From a virus (taxonomy: Duplodnaviria; Caudoviricetes), in the IMG/VR virus record IMGVR_UViG_3300020042_001792, positions 1 through 41,518 of that record: a DNA stretch of 41,518 nucleotides, one strand, 5' to 3'. Positions within the stretch are counted from its first letter, which is position 1. Each line of letters begins with the position of its first letter. The translations under genes were made by a program, and so were the position numbers. The notes under the pieces were generated by a model, which searched no databases, had not been told where the DNA came from, and saw nothing but the letters and a program-made list of their open reading frames with translations. Positions 1 to 36,341 of this stretch are shown piece after piece.

Positions 1-160
1 TTTTTGCTTTGGTCGTCGCAGCATACTCAGCAGGGCTAAGGCTCTTAATTGCAGACTCTGGAAGGTATCTTTCACCAGTTTCAGAAGATTTTTTACCACT
101 TTTCGTTCTCCATTTTTGGTCACCCCAAGCCTTCAGTGATTGCTGGGGCTTTTTAATCAC
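1..160 (-). CDS. Small basic phage protein (DUF5872-like C-terminal half), truncated at the window edge
   Basis: Not in the ORF track. Manual translation from GTG at 160 gives MIKKPQQSLKAWGDQKWRTKSGKKSSETGERYLPESAIKSLSPAEYAATTKAK, open to position 1, overlapping the upstream stop. The W-x-T-K and RYLP motifs recall DUF5872. Confidence 0.75.
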   Translation of the reverse strand, partial: MIKKPQQSLKAWGDQKWRTKSGKKSSETGERYLPESAIKSLSPAEYAATTKAK

Positions 161-605
161 GATAACCACCACCTGCGTCTTTATAACGCTTTGCTACAAC
201 CTGCGCTTTGCGGGCTGACCACTGTCCAGCACCCGTTCCAGCAGTAGCCTCAGACTTCACATCATTGAAAATACGTTTGCGCAACTCTGGCTTGGTGTAG
301 TTGCCTGCGGCGTTGACCGTTGACTTGCCGCCCTCTTTGTAAGAGGCAGTCTTAGCCGCATTGGCAAAATCGCTGGACTTAGGAGCGCCCTTACTACCAG
401 CACTACGCATTTTCTCGCCAGAGCCAGAGGCTATACGTTGCTTCTTTGCGGCAATATTTGCATACAAACCACCACCCGCCATCTTTGCATCTTCCTTGAC
501 AAATTCCTTGCCGACCTTAGAAGGTATGCCAGTCTTTTTGGCAAAATCAGGGTTATGCGCAACCGCCGACATTAAACGATGCTGAGAAGAGGATTTAGTC
601 GGCAT
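153..605 (-). CDS. Basic, modular late protein (three short modules joined by MAGGG and YKEGG)
   Basis: 150-aa ORF in the late operon; last module contains YTKP...GQWSARKAQ. Confidence 0.8.
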   Translation of the reverse strand: MPTKSSSQHRLMSAVAHNPDFAKKTGIPSKVGKEFVKEDAKMAGGGLYANIAAKKQRIASGSGEKMRSAGSKGAPKSSDFANAAKTASYKEGGKSTVNAAGNYTKPELRKRIFNDVKSEATAGTGAGQWSARKAQVVAKRYKDAGGGYRD

Positions 606-1005
606 AGGATTTAATCATATCAAGTGTGATTGAATAAAAATCTCCTGCGGCGGCGTCCGTTGTTGTAAATCTTATATCGCCAGTTTTACCAGCACCCGCG
701 TTGTTTGGAAGTCCACCAAACAATGAAAAATCTATGTTGTAAAATGTGTTTTGTGGGATACCAATACAAAATAAATCAGTTGTTGCATCCCACAAAATTT
801 CTACTTGCAAACCATGCGTTGATGCGTAAATTTTAAGAATTGTGACGCCATCACACGCTTTGCCAGAAGCACTTGACAAAAGAGTAGACACATCTACTTT
901 TAATACCGCAGATTCATTGCCAGAGCCATCGCACAAAAAATCAAATTTTTGAATTGCTGTGCGCTCCCCGTCAAAAATAGTTTGCGTCGCTACTGTGTTA
1001 GCCAT
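595..1005 (-). CDS. Hypothetical virion structural protein (beta-rich)
   Basis: 136-aa ORF with AAGGGA upstream; position downstream of the capsid genes. Confidence 0.7.
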   Translation of the reverse strand: MANTVATQTIFDGERTAIQKFDFLCDGSGNESAVLKVDVSTLLSSASGKACDGVTILKIYASTHGLQVEILWDATTDLFCIGIPQNTFYNIDFSLFGGLPNNAGAGKTGDIRFTTTDAAAGDFYSITLDMIKSYAD

Positions 1006-1019
1006 TTTGTTCCCTTAAT

Positions 1020-1044
1020 AAAAAGCAGGGGCCGAAGCCCCTAC
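1020..1044 (-). terminator. Rho-independent terminator
   Basis: Minus strand GTAGGGGC-TTCG-GCCCCTGC-TTTT just after the stop at 1051. Confidence 0.75.
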
Positions 1045-1050
1045 TCGTTT

Positions 1051-2262
1051 TCAACAAGCGCGTCCGCCGCGCTTTTTACCTGCTGGGGATACTGTTACAG
1101 ACTTTTCAGTCTGAGTAACAGAACCTTGTCCCTTAGCCGCACGGTCTGAATTCATTCTTTCAGCCGTTGCTCTACGGGCTTCGCCCTCAAACAACTTTTT
1201 GCGCTCATCGCCTTTGAAGTAACCTTCTGGGTCAAAAGAACGCATGATATGTCGTCCTAAGTCTTTTGCCATGCCCAAAGGGTTCATTGCTTCTTCTAAC
1301 TCACGATTTGCTTTGTCGCTTACAGACTTTGGGTCTACTTTGTTTTTGTCAAAGAAACTTTCGTCTGGAGTTGGAGAGCCACCTTTTTGCATCTTCTGGT
1401 ACTTGCTGTAGACATCGTTGGATTGAGACTTTGCCTGCTTCATAGCAGTCTTGTTCTCAGCCCCAAATGCTTTCATCAAGTTACCTTCAGCAGGGGTGAC
1501 CTTGCCACCCTTTTTGAAAGTACCAGCATAACGATTGATGCTTACAGGAGGCGATGGCTTTTTAGCGCCTTGGGGCATCGCGACGGGCTTGCCTGAATCA
1601 ACAGTTCCCCCCGTCGCGTAGGCTTTTTTTGAGGATTTACCCCCATGCTTAAAACCACCAGCATTGCCTAGTGCGACGCCACCAGTTTTCATCTTGCCCT
1701 TGCCATCAGCCGCAAAGTCGGGAACCATCTTCCCACCCTTTTCGACCATAGACATACCGCCATCTTTGTAACCGCCGCCGTTACCCAGCTTCACGCCACC
1801 AGTAGCCATGCCGCCTTTTTTGAAGCCGCCAGCGTTACCAAGAGCAACGCCGCCAGTCTTCAAACCTTTATGGCCCTTGCTGGCAGGCTTGGACTCGTGA
1901 GACTTCAGTTCTTTCTCAAGACCCTTCATCTTCGACATCTCAGCCATATTCGTCTTTTTGGACTCGCCGCCTTCCTTCATTGGAGGCATAGCCATAGAAG
2001 GCTTCTTAGCCATCATCGCCTTGCGACGTGAGGACATTGAAGGCTTGCCGGGGGCGCGAACAGGAGCGTTAACAGCAGGACGACCAACGAGGGCTGGAGT
2101 CCCCATCATCATGTCCATTGCACCGCCGCCCATCGCCATCTTCTTGTGACCAGCTTCCGCTTTGCCACCTTTTTTCATGTTGACGTGACCGCCTTTTTTG
2201 AGTTTTAACTCGACTGAAGGCTCAGTGGTCATCATCTTGACCATTGGTTTAAATTGACCCAT
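1051..2262 (-). CDS. Lys/Gly/Met-rich low-complexity late protein with about 15 xKxGG/xAxGG motifs
   Basis: ORF track 1051..2328; start revised to ATG 2262 (MGQFKPM) because TAAGGAG lies just upstream. Confidence 0.8.
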   Translation of the reverse strand: MGQFKPMVKMMTTEPSVELKLKKGGHVNMKKGGKAEAGHKKMAMGGGAMDMMMGTPALVGRPAVNAPVRAPGKPSMSSRRKAMMAKKPSMAMPPMKEGGESKKTNMAEMSKMKGLEKELKSHESKPASKGHKGLKTGGVALGNAGGFKKGGMATGGVKLGNGGGYKDGGMSMVEKGGKMVPDFAADGKGKMKTGGVALGNAGGFKHGGKSSKKAYATGGTVDSGKPVAMPQGAKKPSPPVSINRYAGTFKKGGKVTPAEGNLMKAFGAENKTAMKQAKSQSNDVYSKYQKMQKGGSPTPDESFFDKNKVDPKSVSDKANRELEEAMNPLGMAKDLGRHIMRSFDPEGYFKGDERKKLFEGEARRATAERMNSDRAAKGQGSVTQTEKSVTVSPAGKKRGGRAC

Positions 2263-2272
2263 GTCGCTCTCC

Positions 2273-3250: not shown

Positions 3251-3289
3251 TTTGTCTGCTCCTTGAAAAGTTTGACAAATACAGTTAAC

Positions 3290-3321
3290 AAAAAAGGGGC
3301 TGGGTGTTATCCCAACCCCCT
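3290..3321 (-). terminator. Rho-independent terminator after the major capsid gene
   Basis: Minus strand GGGGTTGGG-ATAACA-CCCAGCCCC followed by a T run. Confidence 0.75.
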
Positions 3322-3331
3322 GTGGCGTGGT

Positions 3332-4246
3332 TTAGACGCCCGGTGTGCCGTAAAGGGCGCGTGGGTCGGTAAAACCAACTTGGTAACGCTCGGTGGCCTT
3401 GTAGCGCATGGAGTCGGTTTCAAAATCGCCCTCCATAGTCTTTTCCAGCTTACGACGCATCAACAGCTTCATGCCCTCTGGAGCGTCTGTCTGCACCCAG
3501 AATGCTGTGGATGAAGTCAGACGAGACAGAACAGCAGCGCCTTCGTCCAGCAAGCCAATTGACTTGATTGGGTTGACGTCGTTGTTGCCTGTACCAGCAC
3601 GGAGAACTGATTTCAACAGAACTTCAGCTTGGAAGATGTTGCCCGGGGCGACCACCAATTGGCGGGGAACCAGACGAATCTTCTTGCCGTTGTTGTCAAC
3701 TGCTTGGCGAATCTGAATCAGCATCTGCTCAAGCGATGTCTGGCTCAGGTTGGCGGCGGTGGTCAGCAAGTTGCTGAAAGTACCGTTCACGATAGGATGG
3801 GAAGCACTGTTCAGTGCAACGCCGTCACCACCGGGGAAGGCTGAGTTGAACGCACGATTCAACACGTTTGCTGACAAAGTTTCTTTGGTTTCAATTAAAG
3901 ACTGTGCCAAGTGACGTGCATAAACCTGACCGATACGGATATGGTCGCCGTCTTCAACCAACACTTTGGTCAACGCGAAGGCCAAGCCAAACACGTTGTA
4001 TACATAGCGTTGCAAGAAGAGAACACCACCCTGCTGATACGAAACAGGAGTTCCGTCAGGCAATTGAGGTGCGGCACCAAATCCATAAAGGACTGGTTCT
4101 TCGTGGTAGTTGCGGGGGATACCTTCTTGCTCACGGAAAACCCGTGACCATTCGTCGGTACGTTGGTCATAGACTCCATCGAAGCATTCATTGAGGATTG
4201 GTTCAACGATGCTTCTAAAGTCCGTACTGCGCATTGGTGCGGCCAT
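3332..4246 (-). CDS. Major capsid protein (HK97 fold, Mu gpT-like)
   Basis: 304 aa; EEPVLYGFGAAP..GTPVSY and GGDGVAL..ASHP patterns, C-terminal ERY.VGFTDPR.LYG.PG; strong RBS; followed by a terminator. Confidence 0.85.
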   Translation of the reverse strand: MAAPMRSTDFRSIVEPILNECFDGVYDQRTDEWSRVFREQEGIPRNYHEEPVLYGFGAAPQLPDGTPVSYQQGGVLFLQRYVYNVFGLAFALTKVLVEDGDHIRIGQVYARHLAQSLIETKETLSANVLNRAFNSAFPGGDGVALNSASHPIVNGTFSNLLTTAANLSQTSLEQMLIQIRQAVDNNGKKIRLVPRQLVVAPGNIFQAEVLLKSVLRAGTGNNDVNPIKSIGLLDEGAAVLSRLTSSTAFWVQTDAPEGMKLLMRRKLEKTMEGDFETDSMRYKATERYQVGFTDPRALYGTPGV

Positions 4247-4256
4247 GATTTACTCC

Positions 4257-4829: not shown

Positions 4830-4859
4830 AGTCTCACTCCTTTGTTTCGTTCATAAACC

Positions 4860-5399
4860 CTACCCCGCAAAATGCGGCGCAGGAATCGGTTTGTCAATGT
4901 CAATAAGCCCATCGCCTTCAATCTGACCGAGGCTTCTGCCCCGACTATCACGTCCCACGTTTTGCTCTGCCTGAAGGCGAATTTTGTTCGCTTCTTCCTG
5001 CGGTGCATCATGGTGAAAATGAGCCATTACTTCTTGGTACAAGTCCATAGGAATCTTGTACAGCAACATCTCATTACACGAAATATAACCTTCATGCTCT
5101 CCAGCCTTTACGCGGTTGTTTCGCATCTCTGGTAACTCATCTGCTTTCACAGGAACGTACCCAAGGCGAATGCGCTTATCAATGCTGTCGTAACTGTTGG
5201 TTGTCGATAACCAGCAAACGTGCCATCCCTTCATATCAGGAACAGCGGGCAATGCACTTTGTGTCCACTCATCTTTCCACATCTTGCGACGCTCGTCTGA
5301 TGATACGAACTTCTCTTCTGGAGCCTCTCGAATGGTATCAAGACTCCCGCGATTGTCGCGGCCTCCAGCAGATAAATTTTTCTTTAAACGTGAATCCAT
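4860..5399 (-). CDS. Conserved head-module hypothetical protein
   Basis: 179 aa between scaffold-like and capsid genes; AAGGAG RBS. Confidence 0.7.
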   Translation of the reverse strand: MDSRLKKNLSAGGRDNRGSLDTIREAPEEKFVSSDERRKMWKDEWTQSALPAVPDMKGWHVCWLSTTNSYDSIDKRIRLGYVPVKADELPEMRNNRVKAGEHEGYISCNEMLLYKIPMDLYQEVMAHFHHDAPQEEANKIRLQAEQNVGRDSRGRSLGQIEGDGLIDIDKPIPAPHFAG

Positions 5400-5410
5400 T
5401 TTAAAACTCC

Positions 5411-6421
5411 TTAACGTTGGTTGTTGTTGCGTGCTTCGATTGCATAACGGCGAATCATCTTCGCTCGTTTGTCAGCGTCATCCCACATTCCTGCATCTTT
5501 CATGGCCCTCACCTGATCGGGTGAAAGGGTGAAGGTGTTTTTACCACCACCACTACCAGTTGCATTCTCGCGGCCTGAGCCTGTCACAACATTCCTCGGT
5601 CTCGAATTTCGAGTCGGTTCTCGTTCGGTATCATCAGTATACCGATGAGGAAGGTATCTTTGCAAGCGGTTGTCAAGTTCGTCCCAATATTCGGCAGTTT
5701 TTGGGTTGTAACCTTCTTCGCCCATGGCCTGATCAATGGCAAGAGCAATCTTTGAATCAGGGTCTTTGCCGTTGGGGTCGTACCAAGAGTTGTTGTTCAT
5801 CCATGCACTTGCCAAACGCTGCAATTGCGGGTCTACAGCAGCAATGGTGCGCTGCTTTTGGGGCTGGACGGCACGTTTTCTCAACGCATCAAGCGCCTCA
5901 TGCTGGCGACGAGCCTCAAACCACATTTCCTGCGCCGAAGTCAGCAATTCACCGTTGCCAGACGATGTTGCCTCTGAAATCTTCTGCTTTGCGAAGGCAA
6001 TGCGGGTCTCTTGGTCTTCAATTGCCTTGTTGATGCGGGCAATATCGCTTCCGTGGGATTTTTTCTCCAATACGGACAGGCGCTCAAGCAATTCGTGGTT
6101 CTGGCGCTCCAAAAACGTCAGTTTTACGTCCTTTTCAGAGGCCACTTGCTTGTGGTATTCCTTGCGCTTGTGCCTTTTTAGGCGTTTTTGCTCTCGCAGG
6201 CGCTCGGCATCGGCATTAACAGCGCCACCGACAGCCAATTCAGCCCGTCGTGCGGCCTCATCGTCTTCGTCAGAGCCGTGATCGTCGTCACCAGCGGCCT
6301 TTGCAGGCTGTTCGTCGGGGGAGGGGATGCTATCAGGCAGTTCGATGGTCGCGGAACCGTCAACCTCTTCCTGAATAGTGATCACCTCTGGTGTTTCTTT
6401 AATTTCTGTGTTCACGCTCAT
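5411..6421 (-). CDS. Probable scaffolding protein
   Basis: 336 aa; acidic N-terminus, long coiled coil, W..NN.WY motif, short C-terminal helical domain; position between portal and capsid. Confidence 0.65.
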   Translation of the reverse strand: MSVNTEIKETPEVITIQEEVDGSATIELPDSIPSPDEQPAKAAGDDDHGSDEDDEAARRAELAVGGAVNADAERLREQKRLKRHKRKEYHKQVASEKDVKLTFLERQNHELLERLSVLEKKSHGSDIARINKAIEDQETRIAFAKQKISEATSSGNGELLTSAQEMWFEARRQHEALDALRKRAVQPQKQRTIAAVDPQLQRLASAWMNNNSWYDPNGKDPDSKIALAIDQAMGEEGYNPKTAEYWDELDNRLQRYLPHRYTDDTEREPTRNSRPRNVVTGSGRENATGSGGGKNTFTLSPDQVRAMKDAGMWDDADKRAKMIRRYAIEARNNNQR

Positions 6422-6840
6422 ACGAATGCCCTCACTTCAAGTGGATTACCTGTGATCTTGGCAATCACCTCGTGGTCGTTCAGCACCATGAACTCGACGT
6501 TGTCGTCTTCTCCATGTGGAACAACCCAGCGGTCGCCAGTCCATTTGGGTACTCGTAGGTAGTCGCCTACTTCGCACCATATGCCCTCGACCCATGGCTC
6601 CATCGTGTCGCGTTTCTTAAACGCCAATGGGCCAAACGCGATCACTTTAGCGACGGGGTTTTGCGCCCGTTCGGTGTCGCGAGTCTCTTCAGGCAAAATA
6701 ATCCCGGATTGAGTCATTCGTTTCTTGGCTTTGCGCAATTGCACAAGTACACGCGCACCAAGGGGAATCGCACCGGGGTCTACAACAGGAAAGGCTTCCT
6801 GTAAATCAGCGGAATTACCCGCTACCGTGCTATCTGTCAT
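6418..6840 (-). CDS. groES: Phage co-chaperonin GroES (Cpn10)
   Basis: PLGARVLV, mobile loop TQSGIILP, VIAFGP, VGD, LNDHEVIAKI. Confidence 0.85.
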   Translation of the reverse strand: MTDSTVAGNSADLQEAFPVVDPGAIPLGARVLVQLRKAKKRMTQSGIILPEETRDTERAQNPVAKVIAFGPLAFKKRDTMEPWVEGIWCEVGDYLRVPKWTGDRWVVPHGEDDNVEFMVLNDHEVIAKITGNPLEVRAFV

Positions 6841-7194: not shown

Positions 7195-7195
7195 T

Positions 7196-9703
7196 TCATT
7201 CTCCTAAGTTACGTTGTGCCATCTGGTTGAGTTGAATTGCAGTTTCTTCCTGCTCTTTGCGCAGTTTCGCCTCGTCGACCGTCAATTCGGCGGTCTTGAT
7301 GCGCTCCTGTGTGAGGTTGTCTTCCGCGTTCATCGCGATTTTGACCTGACGATCCTTGTCCCTGTTTGACTCGTCCGCTTGCAGGCGGGCGGTGTCAAGT
7401 TGGATGTCCGCTTGATCCTTGACGGTGCGGCGTTGCGTCTCAGCAAGAGAAGCCTGCAACACAGCCTGTGCTTCGCCCTCCATCGGAGGTGCTGGCGGCT
7501 TCAACTGCTGCATCATCTGTGACAACTGCTGAAGCGCAGGCATCACGCCTTGAAACACTTGCTGGGTATCCAGCTTGACGTGATCCGAAGCCAAAGCGAT
7601 TGCCTTGTCAATTTGCTTGACCAGTTTGCTGTCCTCGTACTTGCCGTACTGCACCGCGTTGCCGCCTTGCACATAGGTCGACATCTGCCCGGTGTACCAG
7701 AGCATCATGTGCTGCTTGATATGCTCCAAAACCTGCGGAATGAAGCGCTGGGCGATCAATGGGTTTGAGCCAAGGGATGGGTCTAGGGCAAACGTCAAAT
7801 GCGTCTGGATGTGGGCTAGGTGGTCTTGGCGTGGGTATGCGAACGCTGGGCGTCCCAAAGCCATGGCGGCGTTCTCGTCCGCTGCGTTCATCTCGGCAGG
7901 CTTGGCCGCGTTTGGAATCAACTCGTTGACGTTTGGAATCTTGAGTTGCTTGAGCATCCTGCTCACCACGGCACGCTGGTCAAAAATCTGCGGGTATCGC
8001 TCGGCCATCTGCAAGACTGCCTGCATCTGGGCGACACGCTGGGTCTCGCTGAAGATGTGGGGGTCTGACACTGGCACCACGTCGCTGTTGCGCTTGAAGT
8101 CTTCGCGCTTGATGGGCAACTCGGCAACCAAGTCACCCCGGCGCTGCTCGTCAAGATACCAGCGGTTGATGCGGCCAAGAATCTTCAGCACGCGGCCTTG
8201 TGAGTCGTGCAGGCGGGCGTGGATGCTAGAAAACACCACAGCGCCTTGCTCGATCAAAGCCTGCGTGGTGCCCACAGGCATGGTGGACTTGGCGTCTGCA
8301 ATCTTCTCTTCGCTGGTGGTGACCACGCCCTTGGCTGCGTCGGTAAGCCAGCCCAGCAGTTGATACAGTACTGCGCTTGGAGGGTTGAACGGCATGGGCA
8401 TGGCGATCTTGCGAACGTCGTCCACGCCGGGTGCGCCTTCGATCTCGGTGACTTGAGTCACATCGACATTGGCCGATTGACCGCTGATCTTTGCACCTTT
8501 TAACTTCAGCATGGTGGCCGAGTTATTGATGTGCGCAGTGTCCAGCAGGGCGCGGAGGGTTCCGGTCAGGGCTGCGGCAAGGCCACCAATCAGGTGAGGC
8601 AGGCCAATGGCGTAAGCACCGCGCCATGGAATGAACTTGTACTCGACGATCCAATCCAACTTGGTGAAGGTGTCGTCACCCTCTTCCCAGTTGCGGTACA
8701 GGCCAACAACTTTGTTGTCGAGGTCGTCAATCATCAAGACGTAGGGCGCGTTCTCGCCCTTGCTGTAGTCGTCGTCGTCAATGTCAAGGTAGGTGTAGAT
8801 GTGAAAGACGCGGCGCAGGCCGTCTGAGCCGTCTTGGTACTGCTTGCCCTCGATCTTGTCGTTGGCCTTCTCGGCACCAGTTTGATCTGGCTCGGATGTG
8901 GCCCGGATTTGCGTAACGTCACGATACAGGCCACGGTCAATACGCTGCTGGAACTCCCAGTCGGTGATGTCTTGCATCTCCGTTGCACGCTGCGCGGTGT
9001 AGAAGTTCGTTGCCGCAAACGGCAGCAGGATGTTGTCGATGGGCACAAATTCAGCGCACGGGCGACGCTTCTTTTCGTCGTACCAAATCTTCATAAACTG
9101 CGAACCACCCAGCGGCAACTGCGTGAGCAACTGCTCTTGCTCGTCGCGGAACTCTTCCATCTGCTCGGTCAACTGCCAATTCATGTAATCGCGCTTGCGT
9201 TCTGCGACCTCAGTCTTGGCCTCGGTGACCTCGCCCAGAATCTTGGTACGGGTTGGGCCATCAGGCGGGAACATCTCCTTCATGGCACGCGATGCAAAGT
9301 CAACACAAGCCTCGGCCATCACAGGATGCACCACCCTAGATGCGCCGTTGAACTGAGCGCCGCCGGGGGCGTCTTGGCCTAAGCCAGTGCGCTTGAGGCC
9401 GTCTTCATACTGCTTATCTCGCTCCTTACGGGCCTCCTTGTCCTTGCCAATCAAGTCAAGGTAGCGCATACCAATCTTCTCAAGGTCGAACAAATTTACC
9501 GTCTCAGCAAGGTTGGAGTAAAAGTCTTCTGCCTCGGATGGGCCTTTGAACTCTTCCATAGTGACAACAGCAGAGCCGTCTGGCAACTCCTCAACGTCGC
9601 TCAACTCATCGTCAGGCATATCCACTTCAACACCACCATCAGGCGTGTTTTTCATGCCGTCAATAAAACGGTCTGCATCTTGATCAATTGGCATTTCAGG
9701 CAT
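7196..9703 (-). CDS. Portal protein (P22-like, long C-terminal coiled coil)
   Basis: 835 aa between terminase and scaffold/capsid; HPVMAEAC, LPLGGSQFMKIWYD, GTTQALIEQG motifs; Gln-rich helical tail. Confidence 0.85.
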   Translation of the reverse strand: MPEMPIDQDADRFIDGMKNTPDGGVEVDMPDDELSDVEELPDGSAVVTMEEFKGPSEAEDFYSNLAETVNLFDLEKIGMRYLDLIGKDKEARKERDKQYEDGLKRTGLGQDAPGGAQFNGASRVVHPVMAEACVDFASRAMKEMFPPDGPTRTKILGEVTEAKTEVAERKRDYMNWQLTEQMEEFRDEQEQLLTQLPLGGSQFMKIWYDEKKRRPCAEFVPIDNILLPFAATNFYTAQRATEMQDITDWEFQQRIDRGLYRDVTQIRATSEPDQTGAEKANDKIEGKQYQDGSDGLRRVFHIYTYLDIDDDDYSKGENAPYVLMIDDLDNKVVGLYRNWEEGDDTFTKLDWIVEYKFIPWRGAYAIGLPHLIGGLAAALTGTLRALLDTAHINNSATMLKLKGAKISGQSANVDVTQVTEIEGAPGVDDVRKIAMPMPFNPPSAVLYQLLGWLTDAAKGVVTTSEEKIADAKSTMPVGTTQALIEQGAVVFSSIHARLHDSQGRVLKILGRINRWYLDEQRRGDLVAELPIKREDFKRNSDVVPVSDPHIFSETQRVAQMQAVLQMAERYPQIFDQRAVVSRMLKQLKIPNVNELIPNAAKPAEMNAADENAAMALGRPAFAYPRQDHLAHIQTHLTFALDPSLGSNPLIAQRFIPQVLEHIKQHMMLWYTGQMSTYVQGGNAVQYGKYEDSKLVKQIDKAIALASDHVKLDTQQVFQGVMPALQQLSQMMQQLKPPAPPMEGEAQAVLQASLAETQRRTVKDQADIQLDTARLQADESNRDKDRQVKIAMNAEDNLTQERIKTAELTVDEAKLRKEQEETAIQLNQMAQRNLGE

Positions 9704-9748: not shown

Positions 9749-10051
9749 ATGACGACCATCGCCCGAAGAACCCGCGCTCACTATCCATTTGTTGTCGAAC
9801 CTTTCGGGGATCGATGGCAAATCCTGTTTGTCAACATTGACAGACCGAGCCGCGTTGCGGAGTTTGATAAGCGTGAAGATGCGTTCATTCATATGCGATC
9901 ACTCAATCGGCTGTGGTGGCAGGAACTCCACGCGCTTGACGAAGCCCGCCGGGTGATTGAGAGGGTTCGCGAAACAAGCGCCCCTCCGCCCGTTGCAACC
10001 GCTCCCGCATCGCTTTGGACTCGGCTGATGACGGCTTTGCGCCTTCGGTAG
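9749..10051 (+). CDS. Antisense hypothetical protein (possible immunity or partner of the polyvalent protein)
   Basis: 100-aa ORF occupying the otherwise empty 9704-9902 gap, convergent with and overlapping the 3' end of 9903..13340. Confidence 0.55.
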   Translation: MTTIARRTRAHYPFVVEPFGDRWQILFVNIDRPSRVAEFDKREDAFIHMRSLNRLWWQELHALDEARRVIERVRETSAPPPVATAPASLWTRLMTALRLR

Positions 10052-13000
10052 CGTAGTCACCTCGCTCGATGTACAGGCGATCCTTCGCAGGGTCAGCCTT
10101 GCCATAGGTAAAGTTTGCACGCTTGCCCAGCACTGACTTGGCAACGTCCTGCGCATCAAAGAACTCTGTGGGCACCTTGCCTTTGGCTTGATCAAATGGC
10201 ATCACCACCACGCCACCCAGTCGTGGGTTGTGGGCGACAATCATCCCGGGCAACTGCTGGCCCAGTGCAACCACTTCCTCGTTGGTCAACTTCCCACCCT
10301 TGGGGCTGATCAGCATGGCCGATGCGTCGGCAATGTTGTTGGTCATCATGGGCACAAAGCGGTGCGCTGCTACGCTCTCCTGCGCCAAGTCTTGACCACC
10401 TTGCACGATGTCGGCACGCAAACCCTTGTTGGTCGACAGGTTGCCTGCACGCGGCACGTCCACAGCCACCAGCGGGTTGGTCTCAAGCTGCCCTTCAAAG
10501 TTCTCGTACACACCTTGGCCGGGTCGCTTGGTCGTCTTGCGTCCGCCCATGGTCTCCATTGATACCGGGGCACCGGGGCCAGTCATGCGGCGCGTTACAG
10601 TCTCCTGAAAATTACGGGGCTTGTACTTGGCAAGGTCTGGGGCCACGGCTTCCATGGTTACGGTCGCAGGCGTCATAGGACGGCGCACAGCGGCTGTAGC
10701 GGCGTTCAAGCCAGCTTCCCCTGCACGCATCACTTTCGGCGCAGCCTCGGCTGTTTTGGCGGCTCCCTTGATGGCTCCTGCTGGCGAGAACAGCGACAGG
10801 GCCGTCTCCATCATGGGGCGATCCGCTTCGGTCGTCATGCCGTACTGCTTCATCAGGTCTTTGAGATGCTCTGAGCCAAGGAATGGCTTGTCAGAAGCGA
10901 ATCGGTTATCGACTGGCTTACCACTCGCTAAACCACGCACAGCGTCGATGCCCTCCAACCCCATGTTCATCATGTCAACAGGCAGGCCAGCCAAGGGCGC
11001 GACCACGCCACGGTTGAGTAGATCGGTTGCAGCCCGGGGCTTCTTCAGGCTTCCCACTTCTTCCTTGCCCTGCTCTTTTGCCATGCGGGCCAGAATCTCG
11101 GCCATCAGTTTGGCCTTGCTTGGTTGGTCGGCAGGTGGTGCAGACACGCTTTGGCCGGGTATGCGTGCAGCCGCACCACCCTCGTCGTATTGGGCCACGC
11201 CACCACCAGCAGCCTTCCACGGCAACGTTTTGATCGCGCCGCCTTGGGCTTTCCATGGCATCTTCTTGATTGCACCACCATTGGCTGCATTGATGTGGCT
11301 GGCAAACTCGTCGTGAATCTTGGACTCGATGTCCTTGCCATACGCCTTGATCTTGATGGGCTGCTTGTTGACTGAGCCACCCTTGGCCTTGAGGTATTGC
11401 TTGCCACGCAGGACGTCTTCCATCACCTTAGTTGGGTTCTGGCCTGTCTGCTCTGCGGTGCGACGGATCATGCGCTCGAGGTTGTCGATGTAGAGTTCTG
11501 GCTTGGTCTTCAAGGCAGTCACGTCAGCCGAGCCATACCAGCCCAGTGCCTGCGCTTCTGCCGGGGCCATGTTGTGACGCTTTGCGCCACGTTGCCACAA
11601 CTCCTCAAAGCCTGCGTACTCAGAGCCTGATGGCGCAGCCTCCCAAAAGCCGGGTCGGGCCTTGGCCTCCTTCAGACTCATCTTGCCCGACGCGACATCC
11701 TTACGCGGAAAGTGAGTGGCGAGAATGTTGCCCTCCTCATCCTTCTCCACCAGTTTAGATGCCAGCCAGCGCGGATCACCACGCTCGATGATGGGGCCAC
11801 GCACTGCGTTGACGTCCACCGTCACAGGCTTGAGGTTGCCTTGGTAGTTGCGGTAGAACGTGCCCAGCTTCTTGTCTGGTGGCAGTGCGCCCTCAATGTC
11901 GCCGCTGGCAATCTGCTTGCCCCGGCTGAAGATGTCGCCCTGCGCCAGCGATCCATACCCGGGCGGCAACTCGATGGCCGTACCTTCTGGCCGTTCGGCC
12001 TTGCCGCGCTTGATCTTGTTGGTCATCAGAAATGCGTCGTCAGGCAGTTTGCCCGTCTGACTTAGGTGGTACAGGTAACTGCCCATCTTGTTCTGCTGGT
12101 CGACCGGATTGCGCTGTGATGCGGAGGCCATCTGGGCAAGGAAGATGTCGAACTCCCGTTGGGTCATGCCGATGTCCATCGCCACCTGCCTCAATGGCTC
12201 GGTGCCATACCACTCCTGCACGTTCAGGTCTTTGCCTTGGTTAATCAGTTTGTCCACCTTTTTACGGGCGGTCGGTGAATCAAGCAGGTCTTGCATCCGC
12301 TCGGTGTACTTGGGCTGCTTGCCTTCAGCGCGGGCCTTGTCAACCATGGGCATCCGGGGCAAGTCTTTCTGCTCAATGCCGGGTGTGTACATCCCACCAG
12401 TGCGAGGCATCAACGGCAGGCCAGTGCCAGACGGCGTCGTCATGGGGGCTTGCTTGGCCTTGAGCGCCTCTTGCAGCTTGCCAGCCTCAAGAGCGGCGTC
12501 AGCCTCTTTGTTGGCCGCTTTGATGGCCTGCGCTATCTTGCCAAGCGCCCCGGTCTTTCCGCCTTTTTGCATATGGATCGCCCCTCCTCGGGCCTCGTTG
12601 ATGTCACCTTTGGTGGCGTCGTATGTACCACGGTTGCCAATTGCGCTCTTGACTGCGCTGGGGTTGTAGGACACCACCTCGGACAGGTCGTCACCACGGT
12701 ACTGCATGATGCCGTCGTAGCCTTGGGCCTGCGCTCTGGTTTGAATTTGCTTGCCAATGTTGCCCTTCTCCTCGAACGCCTTTTCCACCAATCGAATGGC
12801 GCTGGCCTCATCCATGCCAAGGCTCATGAGCGCGTCAGCCGCTGGGTCAATGCTCCTGCCTGACTTGCCAATGATGAGAGGGTTACGCATCTGCACATGG
12901 ACTGGCAACATATTGCCGCTTGCTTGCCCTTCACGCAATGTGCCAGTAACGCGGTCAGCCGCAAATTGGTCAGCCATCTTCTTGCTGTAGTCACCACCCA

Positions 13001-13340
13001 GACGCATCATCTCAAGCGCCTCGTCATTAGGAATGCCCGTGTAACTGCTTGCGTGTGCGGTGTTAGGGGTTGTGTATATACCAGAGCCAAGTGCGCCCTC
13101 TTTGCTTGGCTTGATGCGACGGATGGCCTCAGTACCTTTGCCGCCTTCGGTCGCGTTCGTGCCGTGGTACAGGCGCATGGGCGCTTTGCTTGGCTCAAGG
13201 AACTTCTGAAGGTTGGCCTCGCGCTCCGCTTTGGGTAGAACGTCCTGCGTGCCCTTCAGCTTAGATGCCGCAGACACCTCTGCCTGCTTGATCGCACTGG
13301 TCAGTCCCTTGCCAAGTTTTTTGAAGTCAGCCATGGTCAT
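9903..13340 (-). CDS. Polyvalent virion-associated protein with an N-terminal ART-PolyVal-like ADP-ribosyltransferase domain and a HhH/glycosylase-like domain
   Basis: 1145 aa between terL and portal. LYHGT..GSGIY..NP..GYDG..EVVSYNPSAVKSAIGNRGTY, then WY..ASASQRNPV..K..F..N..G...VTVD..R..PAEAQALGW. Confidence 0.7.
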   Translation of the reverse strand: MTMADFKKLGKGLTSAIKQAEVSAASKLKGTQDVLPKAEREANLQKFLEPSKAPMRLYHGTNATEGGKGTEAIRRIKPSKEGALGSGIYTTPNTAHASSYTGIPNDEALEMMRLGGDYSKKMADQFAADRVTGTLREGQASGNMLPVHVQMRNPLIIGKSGRSIDPAADALMSLGMDEASAIRLVEKAFEEKGNIGKQIQTRAQAQGYDGIMQYRGDDLSEVVSYNPSAVKSAIGNRGTYDATKGDINEARGGAIHMQKGGKTGALGKIAQAIKAANKEADAALEAGKLQEALKAKQAPMTTPSGTGLPLMPRTGGMYTPGIEQKDLPRMPMVDKARAEGKQPKYTERMQDLLDSPTARKKVDKLINQGKDLNVQEWYGTEPLRQVAMDIGMTQREFDIFLAQMASASQRNPVDQQNKMGSYLYHLSQTGKLPDDAFLMTNKIKRGKAERPEGTAIELPPGYGSLAQGDIFSRGKQIASGDIEGALPPDKKLGTFYRNYQGNLKPVTVDVNAVRGPIIERGDPRWLASKLVEKDEEGNILATHFPRKDVASGKMSLKEAKARPGFWEAAPSGSEYAGFEELWQRGAKRHNMAPAEAQALGWYGSADVTALKTKPELYIDNLERMIRRTAEQTGQNPTKVMEDVLRGKQYLKAKGGSVNKQPIKIKAYGKDIESKIHDEFASHINAANGGAIKKMPWKAQGGAIKTLPWKAAGGGVAQYDEGGAAARIPGQSVSAPPADQPSKAKLMAEILARMAKEQGKEEVGSLKKPRAATDLLNRGVVAPLAGLPVDMMNMGLEGIDAVRGLASGKPVDNRFASDKPFLGSEHLKDLMKQYGMTTEADRPMMETALSLFSPAGAIKGAAKTAEAAPKVMRAGEAGLNAATAAVRRPMTPATVTMEAVAPDLAKYKPRNFQETVTRRMTGPGAPVSMETMGGRKTTKRPGQGVYENFEGQLETNPLVAVDVPRAGNLSTNKGLRADIVQGGQDLAQESVAAHRFVPMMTNNIADASAMLISPKGGKLTNEEVVALGQQLPGMIVAHNPRLGGVVVMPFDQAKGKVPTEFFDAQDVAKSVLGKRANFTYGKADPAKDRLYIERGDYATEGAKPSSAESKAMRERLQRAEGRLFREPSQSPGGLRQARGVPATTAD

Positions 13341-28820: not shown

Positions 28821-28822
28821 CC

Positions 28823-29033: not shown

Positions 29034-29063
29034 AAAGAGGAGAGTGGCAACTGCTCCTAAAAC

Positions 29064-30695
29064 TTACTCTTTGGGCTGGCCTTTGACGGCTTTGTAGCCT
29101 TCATACCCGGCCAGACCCAAGCCACCGACCGTGCCTATGCCGCGCAGGGCCAGCAAAATTGGATGGGTTGGGGGTAGCATAGACATCACCCCAAACGTGG
29201 CCTCTAGCGTTGGCAGGACGGCCCCGGAATAATCTCCCTGTTTGAACTTTTCGATGGCCTCTGCTGCGGCCATTCCAGTCGCGGCCCCGCTGATCACGCC
29301 AAACGCCTTTGGAGCGATTTTTGCCGTGGCGGCACCCACTTGCCCCAACGCACCCGGTTTGACCTCTCCAGCGCGGTCTACGGCCTTCTGTGCCACATTC
29401 ACACCGGACTCGGCGCGTTGCACCTGACTTTGGGCTGTGCGGGCATCCTTGACGGCTTGGTTGGCCGTGCGCCTTGCTTCTCCTGCGGCTTGACGGTCGG
29501 CGCGTGCCTTCTGCGTCCTTTCGTCCATTGGGGCAAGTTCTGCCTCCAGCTTTGTCTTCTGAATTTGGGCCTCGGTTGGGGAAACCAGCAAGCCGCTGGG
29601 GGTGGATGCGCTGATGCCCTCGGTCAATGCATACGCCTTACTGGGGTCGATGAGACCTTGTTGCCCCAGTCTGCCCAGTGTGGCACGCTGTGCCCGCTCG
29701 TTGCGTGCAATTTGTGAGGTTCTTTCGTTGAAGGTAGTCTGAGAGGCGCGGCCAGTAATCCCGGTTTCCTTGGTGGTGCCTTGGATTCCACGGGCCTGCT
29801 GATCTGCCGTAGGGGTCAGACCATCTGGCTCAGGGGTGGGCACTGGCGCAGTGCGTGCGGCCCGAGCAGACTTCATTTCGTCTGTGGCTGTAGCCAGTTC
29901 CGTTTCGGCTGCTTGGTATGCGCCCTGTGCGCGTTTAAATTCTGCCTCAAGGTCACTTAAAGAAGAGCCAGAGCCTACGCGGCTTTGCACCTCATTTAAT
30001 TTGTCGCGGGCCACCTGCAAACGTTCACGCGCACCTTCAAGTCGAGGTGACGAAGGTTGCTTAACGTTGCCAGCAACGATGCCAGAGCCAAGGCCAGCAG
30101 CCGCTCCAATAAGTGCGGCATCTTCTTTGTTGACATCGGCCTCACGCTTGACCACAGGAGGGGGTGGCTCCTTAGCAATTCTCTGGGCCTCCGTCTCACC
30201 AGAGCCAAAACCAAACTCATCGTCTTCTGCTTTGACTGGTTTGGCTGACTCCATTCGAGCATTGACCAACGAAAACGCGCTGTTCAACTTGCTGCCGTAG
30301 TCTTTGTCCTCCGCGTAACCGCCTTGCGTCCCGGGGCGCAACGCTTTAGTAAAGGCACCAACATCAGCGCCAGAACCAACAACCTCTGGGAACTGACGCT
30401 TTATGTACTGCGCATAGTAATCGGCAAAAACATTTGGGTCTTCAAACTTGAGGTATCGGTCTTTGCTTTTTGTGGCGTTGTCAGTGGCCTCAACGCCCTT
30501 GCCTGCGGATTTAATATTTCCAAGGTTATAGGTTCCGGGCACAATACTCGAACCCCATCCCGTTTCCATACCAAATTGCGCAAGCAAGATGCGCGGGTCT
30601 ACGTTAAGTTGTTGCCCAATACGCTCGGCAATCGGCGTGTACTCTTGAATGAATGCATTGGCGTCTCCGCCTTGTTTTGGTTCTGCCACAATCAA
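29064..30695 (-). CDS. Internal virion protein with N-terminal GH73 (FlgJ-like) peptidoglycan hydrolase
   Basis: LAQ..METGWG, YNLGNIK, GYAEDKDY..KL; coiled coil; C-terminal Gly-rich hydrophobic segments. Confidence 0.85.
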   Translation of the reverse strand: MIVAEPKQGGDANAFIQEYTPIAERIGQQLNVDPRILLAQFGMETGWGSSIVPGTYNLGNIKSAGKGVEATDNATKSKDRYLKFEDPNVFADYYAQYIKRQFPEVVGSGADVGAFTKALRPGTQGGYAEDKDYGSKLNSAFSLVNARMESAKPVKAEDDEFGFGSGETEAQRIAKEPPPPVVKREADVNKEDAALIGAAAGLGSGIVAGNVKQPSSPRLEGARERLQVARDKLNEVQSRVGSGSSLSDLEAEFKRAQGAYQAAETELATATDEMKSARAARTAPVPTPEPDGLTPTADQQARGIQGTTKETGITGRASQTTFNERTSQIARNERAQRATLGRLGQQGLIDPSKAYALTEGISASTPSGLLVSPTEAQIQKTKLEAELAPMDERTQKARADRQAAGEARRTANQAVKDARTAQSQVQRAESGVNVAQKAVDRAGEVKPGALGQVGAATAKIAPKAFGVISGAATGMAAAEAIEKFKQGDYSGAVLPTLEATFGVMSMLPPTHPILLALRGIGTVGGLGLAGYEGYKAVKGQPKE

Positions 30696-32617: not shown

Positions 32618-32620
32618 TTT

Positions 32621-33559
32621 TTACGCCCCAGTCCGCTGAACACGACCACCGATGCGATAGCCTTTGCCACGATGAGTGACAGACATTGGTGGGGTTTTTT
32701 TGATAGCGCCGCCGTCTTTTGTACCCTTTGCTGGGTCTGCACGCATGAACGAGCCGAGACCAGCCAAAAGGCTTGCAATTTGCGACAACGGGCTGTTGGA
32801 ATAAGCGCCAGCCTCTGGGCCAATTTTTTGTTGGACTGTGCCTGTTGGGACAGGGTTGCCCTGCATAAGTTTGGAAAAGGCTTGAGCCTGAGCCATTGGG
32901 TAATCAAGGGTCTTTTGACCAAGCGCTTGCTCTTGACCGCCGTAGTCAAACATGGCCTTCAGACCACCCAAACCAAGTTGCTGCTGCTCTTGGCCCAGCG
33001 ATTGAAACGAGCGGCCAGCATTCAAAGCCCTCTCAAGATCGCTCTGCGCAAACTTGCCCGCTTCGCTGTAGCCTGACTGAAGCGCCTGCGCCTGCTTGCC
33101 CAGTAAATCAGCTTGCAAGTCTCGCAAGACGTTACCAGTGATCTGGTTTTGACGACGCGATCCAAACTGGCCCATGCCGATTGCCGCGCCGCCAAGGTTT
33201 GGCAGCACGTTTTCTTGAATGTTGCGCTGCTGCAAACGACCCATTTCATCTACCACCCTTGAGGTGTAGGGGTTCATGTAGTCGCCGACAACGTCGGGCA
33301 TGGTGGTTGCACCAGCCTCACCCATCAACTTCGATGCCGCGCCCAATGAGCCAGCGCCAGAAAAGGCAATGTCTGGCACCATTTGAAGCGCTTGCTGTTG
33401 CAGGCCAGAAAAGCCAGCAACGCCACCCTGTTGGATTGCGTTCTGGCCTAAGTTGGCAATGTCCTGAAGATAGTTGGTATAGAACTCTGGAGCAGTCTGT
33501 TGCTGTTCGGTTGTCGTGACCACATCAGGTAGTGGATCACCTTGGAAAAGTCCAGCCAT
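32621..33559 (-). CDS. Internal virion/DNA transfer protein
   Basis: 312 aa, Gln/Gly/Ala-rich; YMNPY and GQFGSRR motifs. Confidence 0.7.
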   Translation of the reverse strand: MAGLFQGDPLPDVVTTTEQQQTAPEFYTNYLQDIANLGQNAIQQGGVAGFSGLQQQALQMVPDIAFSGAGSLGAASKLMGEAGATTMPDVVGDYMNPYTSRVVDEMGRLQQRNIQENVLPNLGGAAIGMGQFGSRRQNQITGNVLRDLQADLLGKQAQALQSGYSEAGKFAQSDLERALNAGRSFQSLGQEQQQLGLGGLKAMFDYGGQEQALGQKTLDYPMAQAQAFSKLMQGNPVPTGTVQQKIGPEAGAYSNSPLSQIASLLAGLGSFMRADPAKGTKDGGAIKKTPPMSVTHRGKGYRIGGRVQRTGA

Positions 33560-33560
33560 T

Positions 33561-36341
33561 TTATTTTCCTTTCTTCAGGTAAGACGTTAGCGCCTTGGTC
33601 TTTGGCGGGATTTTGTTCAATGGAGCAGAGCGCTTGTGGGCGCGGATACTCTCGCGGAACTTGTCCAAAGCCTGCGCTCCTGCCTTAGTTGAGCCGTTGC
33701 CAATCTGGGCCACGGTCTCAGCATCAATCACATATTCACCATCCGCCAGCATAGCTGGGATGTCGTCCGATTGTCCGTCACCCGGCCCATGCACGGCGGA
33801 ACCTTGGCGGAAGTCCAAGCGGCCCTCCCTGAGCGGAACGTTTGACAGCGCTGGCAAGCCGCCGCTACGCATACCTTGCGGCATACCCGGTTGGCCTTGG
33901 GGCACGCCCATCGGCGCTGCCATTGGCATTTTGGGAGGCATTGCAGGGCGCATAGCCATGCTTGGCTGTGCAGCTTGCGACAACGCGCCAAGACCGCCTT
34001 GTGGGGCATTCTGGGGCATTGTGGGCGGCATGGCCTGCGGCATCCCGGATTGGCCCTGTTGCATCGGCTGGGGGTTGCGCAGATTCTCCAAAGGATCAAC
34101 CGCTTTGCCAAAGGTGAAGTAGGTGTCAGCCAAGCCGCCTGCGGCCATCTTTGGCGCTTCAGCGGGTGCCTCTGCCGGGGCTGCTTCGGTAACGTCGTAG
34201 TCGCCCTCGCTCACAGGGTTAAAGCCCGGTGCGTTCAGGTTTGTATACAACTCATCGCCATACAGGTCAGGCATTTGATTCCGAGCGCCGTACTCGTCAT
34301 AAGTGACGTAACGAGGTGCGCCGACACCAAAGTTAGTGGTGCGAGGATTTATTGCTCCAACCTTGGTCATGTCGATGGCCTGACGATCAGAGCCGCCGCC
34401 AGAGAACAAATCACTATTGCCAAGCAATGCACCCAGCACGGCACCAGCAGCGCCAGCACCGAGGTACTCACTGCCAGTGATGCTCGAGATCATCTTGTCC
34501 AAAGTGCTTTTTTGTTCTTTTTGGTTTAATTTTTCTTTGGCAATATCCGCAGCACTTTTGACTGGGTTGCGCTTGTAGATGTCTTTGTCGCCAGAACCTA
34601 CGTTGATGATGGATGAGTCTGGCGATTCTGTGTAGTCAACCACGCTTCCATCGGGGCCGTAGGTAATGGATGAGCCATCATCAAACACCTCAGTGCGGTT
34701 GCCCGCCTGATCAGGAGCCTCGGTGTAACCAACCACGTCACCGTTGGCGTCGTAGGTAATTGTTGAGCCATCGTCAAATGTTTCAGTGCGGTTTCCAGAG
34801 TCTTGATTGCCGCCAGAAGATTCGTACACGTTGCCATCAGTGTCATAGGTGATGTATGTGCCATCGCTTAAATACTCTATGTAACTGCCGTCATCAAACA
34901 TTTCGGTGTCCATAACTTCGGAGTCAGCAGTGGTGTATGTGTTGCGAGGCGTACCAGTGTTATACAGGCTCATGTCGCCTGTCAGCAAACCGGGTTCGTC
35001 GTACTCGCCGTAGTTATATCCAACGTTCTGGAAGTCTTGGACTTCTTCAGTCGTGTCTGAATAGCCACCATCTACAAAATGGCGCACGTCTCCACCGTGT
35101 TTCATCATGGTAATAAACCCGCCCTTCTTGAGATCGTAGTAGTCGTCGTAGTTGTACTCTTCTTCGTCCACAATGGTGTCATCGATTGGATCATCTTCGT
35201 ACATATCCGTGTAGTCAATTTCGCTGTCGTCATATTCAACGCCAGTGTCATAGGGGTCATACGACAGGTCACCGTTTGAGTCGTACACATAGCCGTCGTC
35301 GTCTGTGTAGTAGTCCTCCACATACTCGTTCTCTTCTTCGTATGCGCCGCCATCGGCCTCGTACACCAACTCGCCGTCAGCGTTGTAGATGTTGCCGTCA
35401 TCATCTTGAAAAAAGCCCGACTCGTAGTCATCGACCACATCGCCAGTGTCATCATCGGCATCATCGGCAACATCGGTGGCATCGGTTGAGCCAGTTACAT
35501 TGCCACTGGCGTCAACAGTAATTGAACTGCCATCGTCATAGGTATAGGTGATCGAGCCGTCGTCATTGACAATCTCTTTTGAGCCACCGCCAACGTCACC
35601 AATGTCAGTCGACTCTTCACTGGAAACAATATTGCCGTCCGCATCAACGGTGATGGTTGAACCGTCATCATAAGTGTAGGTCTTAGAGCCGTCGGCATTG
35701 GTTATCGAGCCGTCATCATTTCTGACTGGGCCTGAATCAACCACCGGGGTGGTCTCGCCATCTTTAGGCGGAGTCGTTGGGCCTTTAGGAACGACGGGAA
35801 CTTTTGGAGTGACAGGGGGCTTCGTGACCGGGGGCTTGGTCACTGGCGGCTTAGTAACAGGCGGTTTTGTGACGGGCGGCTTCGTCACAGGTGGTTTTGT
35901 GACGGGCGGTTTTGTGCCCGGGATTGTTGGAAGCCCGGGGATTTTTGGCGGCACTACAGGTGGCCGAACCACAGAAGTAGGGGGAGTAACCGGGGCACTT
36001 GGCTGCTTGGGAGTAGATGGTTTTTTGCCAAAAAACTTGTCGTAGGCCATCTTCCCGGCCACACCAGCGCCTGCGCCAGCCAATGCGCTTGTCAATGTCT
36101 TGCCAAGGCCAGAGGTGCTTTTGTTTGAGCCGCTGGCCGATTTGGTAATTGCTGGCCGAGTACCACCCGAGCCGCTTGACGTAATAGACGTCGGCGAACT
36201 TACGCCCACGGCAGGGCGCGTGTTAACTGCGTTAGGGCCACTCAGGGCGCTGGTCAGCTTGGCAGACGGCCTTGTCTTGGTTTTGACGCTAGTATCCTTT
36301 GCTGGGCTTGAACTTGAGCGACGTTTGCTGAGAATTGCCAT
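33561..36341 (-). CDS. Large modular internal virion protein with C-terminal GPG..SD.IPAML.DGEYV domain
   Basis: 926 aa: basic N-terminus, (KPPVT)7, acidic DDGS repeats, Pro/Met-rich linker, conserved C-terminal domain. Confidence 0.75.
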   Translation of the reverse strand: MAILSKRRSSSSPAKDTSVKTKTRPSAKLTSALSGPNAVNTRPAVGVSSPTSITSSGSGGTRPAITKSASGSNKSTSGLGKTLTSALAGAGAGVAGKMAYDKFFGKKPSTPKQPSAPVTPPTSVVRPPVVPPKIPGLPTIPGTKPPVTKPPVTKPPVTKPPVTKPPVTKPPVTKPPVTPKVPVVPKGPTTPPKDGETTPVVDSGPVRNDDGSITNADGSKTYTYDDGSTITVDADGNIVSSEESTDIGDVGGGSKEIVNDDGSITYTYDDGSSITVDASGNVTGSTDATDVADDADDDTGDVVDDYESGFFQDDDGNIYNADGELVYEADGGAYEEENEYVEDYYTDDDGYVYDSNGDLSYDPYDTGVEYDDSEIDYTDMYEDDPIDDTIVDEEEYNYDDYYDLKKGGFITMMKHGGDVRHFVDGGYSDTTEEVQDFQNVGYNYGEYDEPGLLTGDMSLYNTGTPRNTYTTADSEVMDTEMFDDGSYIEYLSDGTYITYDTDGNVYESSGGNQDSGNRTETFDDGSTITYDANGDVVGYTEAPDQAGNRTEVFDDGSSITYGPDGSVVDYTESPDSSIINVGSGDKDIYKRNPVKSAADIAKEKLNQKEQKSTLDKMISSITGSEYLGAGAAGAVLGALLGNSDLFSGGGSDRQAIDMTKVGAINPRTTNFGVGAPRYVTYDEYGARNQMPDLYGDELYTNLNAPGFNPVSEGDYDVTEAAPAEAPAEAPKMAAGGLADTYFTFGKAVDPLENLRNPQPMQQGQSGMPQAMPPTMPQNAPQGGLGALSQAAQPSMAMRPAMPPKMPMAAPMGVPQGQPGMPQGMRSGGLPALSNVPLREGRLDFRQGSAVHGPGDGQSDDIPAMLADGEYVIDAETVAQIGNGSTKAGAQALDKFRESIRAHKRSAPLNKIPPKTKALTSYLKKGK
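35808..35912 (-). repeat. 7 x 15-bp coding tandem repeat (KPPVT)
   Basis: Seven units identical in protein but varying at synonymous positions. Confidence 0.9.

Follow-up and report, generated by a model that had tools for sequence, protein, structure and literature searches.

A glycine-glycine motif at the joints and tails of late phage proteins as a candidate signal for docking and cleavage

Introduction

What is the role of a five-residue peptide that recurs in several late proteins of a phage? The question is raised by a 41.5-kb virus record (IMGVR_UViG_3300020042_001792), which was analysed over its full length of 41,518 nucleotides and is referred to here as the window. It is approximately 77% complete and belongs to a short-tailed phage whose gene order is terminase, portal, GroES, scaffold-like protein and capsid, followed past the missing stretch by a tail gene and four to five likely ejection proteins, all encoded on the minus strand; the roles of the unannotated late proteins are inferred from gene order and protein families. 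A preliminary description of this DNA noted a shared [MFYL]-[AK]-x-G-G motif in five late proteins and took it for either a double-glycine cleavage site that turns them into polyproteins or a tag that loads cargo into the head. The follow-up analysis indicates that the motif marks the joints and tails of late proteins which are likely packed in the head, and its probable reader is a small conserved module that closes the protein encoded by 33561..36341. That it would be a dock-and-cut maturation signal, bound inside the prohead and then cut, is the favoured explanation, judged from sequence comparison to be evenly poised between right and wrong.

Occurrence and enrichment of the motif

All peptides listed in the preliminary description are present in the open reading frames (ORFs) named there, on the minus strand. 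Enrichment was measured with the strict pattern [MFYL][AK]xGG against 2000 composition-preserving shuffles of each protein. The 403-residue product of 1051..2262, a basic low-complexity protein (pI 10.1) encoded downstream of the capsid gene, contains 12 strict copies where shuffles give a mean of 0.41 and none of the 2000 reaches 12; including MQKGG and KKRGG there are 14 copies, spaced 5-105 residues apart, of which the first lies at 2188-2202 and the last at 1063-1077. The 150-residue product of 153..605 has two strict copies (0.07 expected, reached by 1 of 2000 shuffles), and the 926-residue, hypervariable likely ejection protein of 33561..36341 has three (0.21 expected, likewise 1 of 2000), its copies overall being located at 35064-35132 (three), 34134-34148 and 33858-33872. 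A further strict copy, LAVGG at 6224-6238, follows the acidic N-terminal stretch of the 5411..6421 product, which is considered scaffold-like on the basis of its position and acidic N-terminus. This copy had been overlooked in the preliminary description, which stands with respect to its five proteins but also missed a preference for V, A or I two places past the glycine pair.

Strict copies thus occur in 4 of 24 late proteins of the window (12, 3, 2 and 1 copies in the products of 1051..2262, 33561..36341, 153..605 and 5411..6421) and in none of its 29 early ORFs (3715 residues, 0.48 expected), which agrees with the enrichment in late proteins that was put forward for checking. They are also absent from the terminase of the window and from the two negative controls, the major capsid protein (3332..4246) and the portal protein (7196..9703). 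Two of the five proteins carry loose copies and no strict one in the window. The first is the 1145-residue polyvalent protein encoded between terminase and portal (9903..13340), which has an ART-PolyVal domain at residues 120-239 and loose clusters at residues 249-261 (12558-12596), 651 (11376-11390) and 685-722 (11175-11288) that delimit exchangeable modules. The second is a 312-residue likely ejection protein (32621..33559) with TKDGG (32708-32722) and YRIGG (32645-32659) in its C-terminal tail. Since the wider pattern was fitted after these copies had been seen they are no fair test in the window, and their enrichment is settled by relatives in which strict copies exceed expectation.

Relatives were counted in 80 loci around related capsid genes and, on the ejection side, among distinct homologues in 80 loci around ejection genes. 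In the capsid loci, proteins related to the 1051..2262 product hold 660 strict copies where 21 are expected (66 of 66 proteins), those related to 153..605 hold 65 against 3.7 (52 of 69), the main cluster of 9903..13340 relatives 90 against 8.4 (29 of 32) and the scaffold family 22 against 1.0 (22 of 72 relatives). The corresponding figures are 0 in 78 capsid relatives and 2 against 4.0 in 63 portal relatives, so that the earlier statement that capsid, portal and terminase are devoid of motif clusters is upheld by the strict counts in the window and, for capsid and portal, in their relatives. On the ejection side, 73 homologues of the 33561..36341 product have 170 strict copies against 20.6 expected (at least one copy in 71 of 73), and 64 homologues of the 32621..33559 product have 82 against 12.7, and 61 of these carry one among their final 60 residues. 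The likely ejection protein with a glucosaminidase domain (29064..30695) carries no copy in the window; in 14 of its 54 distinct homologues K-A-[RH]-G-G is followed by just five more residues, a number not above chance, but all of these are terminal. Two other ejection-region families have counts at or below chance. The consensus over relatives is [MYFL(K)]-[AK]-x-G-G-x-[VAI].

Two side observations concern single proteins. In locus L067 (4672-7233) the portal protein has gained M-A-K-G-G 15 residues before its C-terminus, and the 179-residue protein encoded after the scaffold in the window (4860..5399, minus strand) has a conserved L-S-A-G-G at residues 9-13 which is one residue off the motif.

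Position of the copies

The 153..605 product consists of three small basic modules, A-B-C, with the motif at both junctions (MAGGG at 468-482 and YKEGG at 327-341); three PHROG families cover its residues 1-43, 43-88 and 89-149. Its relatives are built from a set of such modules (A, A2, B, C, D and E, of which D is DUF6321), either singly or in strings. Among 70 distinct ORFs the motif is found at 70 of 70 internal junctions of modules B, C, D and E, but where one of these modules opens a gene it is found in 1 of 19 cases, using a wide pattern within 9 residues and leaving aside two spurious module-A matches. Stand-alone module genes instead start with M-[AS]-K-K-[NK] (M-A-K-K-N or M-S-K-K-K) or M-K-K-G in the register of the motif. 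The contrast between junctions and gene starts has a Fisher p of 6e-18, which is uncorrected for kinship and overstates the contrast because the loci are kin; three different modules of the family show the same behaviour. The contrast favours a cut or a joint over a pure address tag.

In the polyvalent family of 9903..13340, 114 of 455 internal BLAST-match ends lie within 15 residues of a motif (1000 shifted controls: mean 53, maximum 73), so that ends of shared blocks are near a motif twice as often as controls and yet most ends are not near one. ART-PolyVal, PcfJ, LPD23 or DUF7178 domains are present in 10 of the 20 relatives scanned, and the Pfam domains of the family lie between motifs. 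Together with the junctions of the small basic modules, these positions bear out the earlier impression that the copies sit at domain boundaries. Copies also come in tight clusters. After the last motif many chains of the 1051..2262 and 153..605 families end in Cys, Cys-Trp or Gly-Trp (GGRAC, GGMC, SKSCW, GGACW and CPGW; examples are 1051..1077 in the window and loci L003, L009, L039 and L041).

A conserved module with homology to the tape-measure hook

Over its final 99 residues the 33561..36341 product is 75-96% identical among its 80 best relatives, whereas the rest of the protein is highly variable. Its residues 120-190 comprise about eight TKPPV repeats and residues 205-590 acidic D-D-G-S-x-I-T-Y-D repeats, in which some homologues of the 32621..33559 product also end; the repeat region is possibly a calcium-binding or glycosylated stalk. 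The conserved end contains an unnamed module of about 60 residues (33627..33812) with the core F-R-Q-G-S..G-P-G-D-G-Q-S-D-D-I-P-A-M-L-A-D-G-E-Y-V.., which is homologous to the 'hook' of tape-measure proteins and is the candidate reader or cutter of the motif. It matches tape-measure PHROGs as well as the structures 8ZDO (E 1e-13) and 8RK3 (E 2e-4) in the Protein Data Bank (PDB), and is present in 139 phage records and in 12,074 clusters at 50% identity.

Motif and module are also close neighbours in sequence. A motif precedes 58 of 58 module copies in loci of the tape-measure type and also follows 44 of the 58, although the search seed itself contained the motif. The window module opens with F-R-Q-G-S and not with the canonical motif, the nearest copy being MRSGG 20 residues upstream; the module of Caulobacter phage GB2A opens with a canonical one. 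In the tape-measure protein gp46 of phage JBD30, F1019-ASGG directly precedes the predicted hook (1022-1066; PDB 8RK3). Its authors propose the hook as an anchor in which they recognised no peptidase motif, and they guess that the protein is cut at 1066 (PMC11445458). In gpH of lambda, F733-ATGG is followed by the module (HHalign 91.6% over 725-796) and then by Y778-ATGG. Residues 1-729 account for 79.2 of 92.3 kDa, and cleavage at the first motif would yield products of approximately 79.5 and 13 kDa. This protein is known to lose about 14 kDa to yield a product of about 78 kDa, and a 2025 paper gives both site and enzyme as unknown (PMC12617516).

Two acidic positions are strictly kept in single-copy modules. 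Among proteins from the search that gave the 12,074 clusters, all 107 such modules retain S-D-[DE]-I and G-E, and in a branch with tandem copies 49-50 residues apart (P0187-P0254, L170:12575-14494, L260-L268) the loss of acidic residues is complementary: in 29 of 29 pairs the first copy keeps S-D-D while its G-E has become G-D, and the second keeps G-E and has lost S-D. The 29 pairs probably descend from one duplication. The division of Asp and Glu between the tandem copies suggests that two copies together form a site, to which one contributes the Asp and the other the Glu, and for such a putative site amine or metal binding would explain the pattern as well as catalysis.

Distribution among phages

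The phage family of the window is abundant, with approximately 1800 stored stretches matching its capsid patterns, and its complete members measure 54-60 kb. The closest cultured capsids are those of Caulobacter phages RW, RLK, KcrB and GB2A (76%), followed by CRP-901, HTVC023P, DSL-LC04 and QDWS535 (37-42%). Around capsid genes the family has 638 motif copies extended by x-[VAI] where 16.6 are expected, and the module is found in 15 of 16 long records, the one record in which it was not detected being 91% complete. In contrast, the CRP-901-like clade has 3 copies against 11.4 expected and no module in 14 records (six at least 90% complete), and the QDWS535-like clade 6 copies against 8.6 and no module in 17 records (five at least 90% complete). 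These motif-free sister clades share the same head gene order, and the module was not detected in them. Inspection by eye of named genomes found module and motifs in HTVC023P, HTVC027P, DSL-LC04, Pra-JY27, ctpbd312 and USP_25, neither in CRP-901, QDWS535 and ct2os315, and one stray copy in ct2G2228. Phages that carry the same motif infect Alpha- and Gammaproteobacteria as well as Bacteroides and actinobacteria.

In Pseudomonas phage vB_PaeM_USP_25 a small gene before a 4,900-residue protein combines the module with three motif copies (L340:5851-6684), so the system extends to a cultured phage that is unrelated. Module-bearing contigs L253-L270 have been binned into unrelated bacterial drafts (Burkholderiales, Saccharibacteria, Bacteroidetes and others). 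As the contigs resemble those of free phages, the bins name no host.

The cargo protein C1 of crAss001

A comparable arrangement is found in cargo protein C1 of phage crAss001 (gp45; PDB 7QOG chain M; Pfam PF25725), which has eight seams at residues 17, 206, 260, 329, 370, 424, 559 and 825. Across 19 distinct C1 homologues there are 91 motif copies where 30.5 are expected. The resolved portal-bound domain (425-552) begins at Ala425 of N-A-F-G-G, and the tail-bound piece (214-245), located 420 Å from it, lies between two seams. Within the capsid, C1 is attached to the wing of the portal, and the text of the structural paper, together with its figure legends and one of its two supplements, describes neither motif nor cleavage, with no match to 'cleav' (PMC10172136). 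Four C1 peptide regions named in that text span no seam, and the full coverage is given there as an image. A possible explanation is that C1 is present as separate fragments, which would account for both pieces without twelve linkers in the portal tunnel.

By eye, G-G-[ST]-H-E and E-x-G-E-V follow one another in the C1 domain as G-Q-S-D-D and D-G-E-Y-V do in the window module, and C1 is the nearest named ESM Atlas cluster (score 0.85), which serves as a lead only. PF25725 has no match in the window's record or in four relatives. Published spectra of crAss001 gel bands (PMC6235969 source data) were re-read for 10 of 13 bands (4-13) at 70 ppm after removal of common trypsin peaks. Portal, gp22, gp23, gp25, gp26, gp44, gp49, capsid, gp36 and gp29 stand out, and C1 has 0-4 matches per band where 0.1-2.8 arise by chance, with C2 no better.

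Proposed mechanism and alternative explanations

In the mechanism proposed here the module, probably as a dimer or a portal-bound ring, would bind the motif inside the prohead, after which the chain would likely be cut, at a best guess between the hydrophobic residue and the Ala or Lys. Such a cut would free effector domains of the polyvalent proteins (ADP-ribosyltransferase, PcfJ, LPD23), trim the tails of ejection proteins and scaffold, and break the 403-residue basic protein into short peptides. The set of putative substrates (scaffold-like, internal basic and ejection proteins) and the tight clustering of copies fit head maturation. Asp of S-D-D and Glu of G-E-Y would form a site shared by two module copies. 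Catalysis by the module itself is the weakest step of this explanation, and the full claim that it is a phage protease, acting as a dimer with an Asp/Glu site, which cuts hydrophobic|[AK]-x-G-G and processes podovirus and crAss cargo, siphophage tape measures and lambda gpH, is doubtful.

Several results weigh against the proposal. Neither Pfam nor NCBIfam has a family for the module, no catalytic motif is recognised in it, and its single AlphaFold2 model, based on 43 close sequences, is unreliable (pLDDT 51, pTM 0.26); the model has two helices and no confident strands, where the hook fold consists of two helices and a short hairpin. The cut in lambda gpH is placed near residue 710 in the lambda study (PMC12617516), 20-40 residues before the motif, so that cut and first motif are a near match but not an exact one. 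GB2A has the module with motifs almost only inside that protein; whole-genome counts are at chance in GB2A and Pra-JY27. The co-occurrence of motif and module rests on three clades, with a module profile that would miss lambda-type and crAss-type modules. Homology of the C1 domain to the module is unsupported (HHalign 0.3-1%; Pfam, HMM and profile tests negative), and its authors, as far as the text described above goes, model C1 as one chain whose pieces are bridged by an unseen linker (PMC10172136). The re-read bands yielded no full-length C1, but the motif-free C2 is equally missing. Finally, many chains keep a motif 5-10 residues from the C-terminus, where nothing is left to release, which suits a tag equally. 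A predicted complex between the module and a segment of the basic protein (residues 200-232) scores 0.02 against a mark of 0.32 and is uninformative on binding either way.

The main rival explanation involves no cleavage. The motif is possibly, in a tentative estimate, an uncut docking tag or hinge which a portal-sited module binds by strand addition, multivalent proteins such as the 14-copy product of 1051..2262 serving to gather cargo under the portal or to order its exit. This would account for C-terminal copies with short tails and for the terminal copy that is often retained by stand-alone A, A2 and B genes, and it agrees with the motif being the first strand of the module itself in tape-measure proteins, with the location of C1 on the portal wing (PMC10172136) and with the role as anchor favoured in the JBD30 report (PMC11445458). 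The co-occurrence of motif and module suits binding as well as cutting. However, the motif has been lost from 18 of the 19 modules found at a gene start and is absent from most module D genes that stand alone, an address is needed once per chain and not at each seam, and the cut in lambda gpH is close to the first motif; these points speak against a tag that stays intact. It is improbable that the motif is cut by another enzyme, either a host protease or an unrecognised phage protein such as the 4860..5399 product, with the module only holding the substrate or its new end. The lack of a recognised catalytic motif in the module favours such an enzyme, the positional evidence for a cut stands without the module as enzyme, and the T5 tape-measure literature reportedly points to involvement of the host (Zweig and Cummings 1973). 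The motif is nevertheless identical in phages of four bacterial groups, and the motif-free sister clades share the head gene order yet are without the module.

That the motif is a by-product of Lys/Gly composition, of internal repeats or of a DNA-level recombination site that shuffles modules is very improbable. The basic protein does contain 16% Gly and 16% Lys along with short internal repeats, but its shuffled versions give 0.4 copies and not 12, relatives behave likewise, and the motif recurs across unrelated protein families, acidic ones included. A DNA-level repeat or recombination site was rejected since the motif uses as varied a set of Gly codons as other positions do, and even the commonest 15-mer accounts for at most 5% of the copies. 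Mixed codons imply that selection acts on the peptide and that the motif is kept as protein and not as DNA.

Whether cut or uncut, the motif would represent a shared code for the head contents of a very abundant phage group which extends to crAss cargo and tape measures. For lambda gpH the dock-and-cut proposal names F733/A734-T-G-G as a test site and two residues for cleavage. For injected polyproteins that are still uncharacterised, it offers predictions of the mature products. The motif could also serve as a short tag to load or release proteins in phage particles. No description of it was found in the open literature searched, to which subscription papers, image figures and bioRxiv supplements do not belong, and the accessible parts of the phiRIO-1 and Xop411 papers contain nothing on it.

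Neighbouring genes

The stretch 38012..39845 (minus strand), which separates the tail gene from the ejection genes, encodes a ketoacyl-synthase-like protein (FabF-like, E 3e-28, below the cut-off), an acyl-carrier-protein-like protein (E 0.002) and an unknown protein of 148 residues. The three genes occur in 44, 38 and 43 distinct versions in related loci and are absent from loci L153 and L159; a possible function is the acylation of a virion protein. A GroES-like co-chaperonin gene lies within the head module (6418..6840, minus strand) and is kept in every related clade examined.

Comparison with known systems

A Gly-Gly pair serves as a signal in double-glycine leaders that are cut by C39 peptidases and at the C-terminus of ubiquitin-like proteins, and the motif resembles both in this respect. 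Neither system applies here: copies are internal or C-terminal and no C39 peptidase was found, no ubiquitin fold, JAB, E1 or E2 is present among the scanned proteins, and for both the position and flanks of the glycine pair differ. A search of 37 window proteins with Pfam and PHROGs yielded a cell-wall M15 enzyme as the only peptidase, though a remote protease could be missed, and a Pfam search of 30 late proteins from relatives, 27 of which are encoded by a single complete genome, yielded none beyond the cell-wall M15 type. C39, JAB, ClpP-type and zincin proteases were not found in the scanned window and relative proteins, and capsid matches to fused protease-capsid profiles cover the C-terminal capsid part of those profiles. 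Of the two roles first suggested for the motif, cleavage site and loading tag, both remain live, whereas a leader of the bacteriocin type does not fit and no known protease has been found.

The proposed system would work like the prohead-protease maturation of T4 (gp21) and of SPN3US and phiKZ (gp245, A-X-E), in which a short, often clustered motif is shared by scaffold, internal and ejection proteins. A capsid targeting sequence of T4, reported by Mullaney and Black in 1996, is said to both load its protein and be cut. In SPN3US propeptides the cut sites are clustered, and one short motif is common to scaffold, internal and ejection proteins according to the study (PMC10052503). Unlike these systems, the window has no detected prohead protease gene, its capsid and portal are without the motif, its copies are internal or C-terminal and do not lie in N-terminal propeptides, and the motif is unrelated to theirs.

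The 9903..13340 family resembles the polyvalent proteins of phages in being a mosaic of ART-PolyVal, LPD23, PcfJ and DUF7178 (Iyer et al. 2017, PMC5512222). Processing of polyvalent proteins by a zincin metallopeptidase domain has been proposed in that paper, and the word 'glycine' is absent from its main text. No zincin metallopeptidase domain was found in the 9903..13340 product or in 20 relatives. C1 of crAss001 offers a likeness in layout, being a string of modules with x-[AK]-x-G-G seams at module borders and around a conserved domain, and with a terminal copy. The likeness to the tape-measure 'hook' of JBD30 gp46, Douge gp16 and lambda gpH is one of homology in sequence; unlike in JBD30 and lambda, the window module ends a podovirus ejection protein, and at least six other proteins share the motif.

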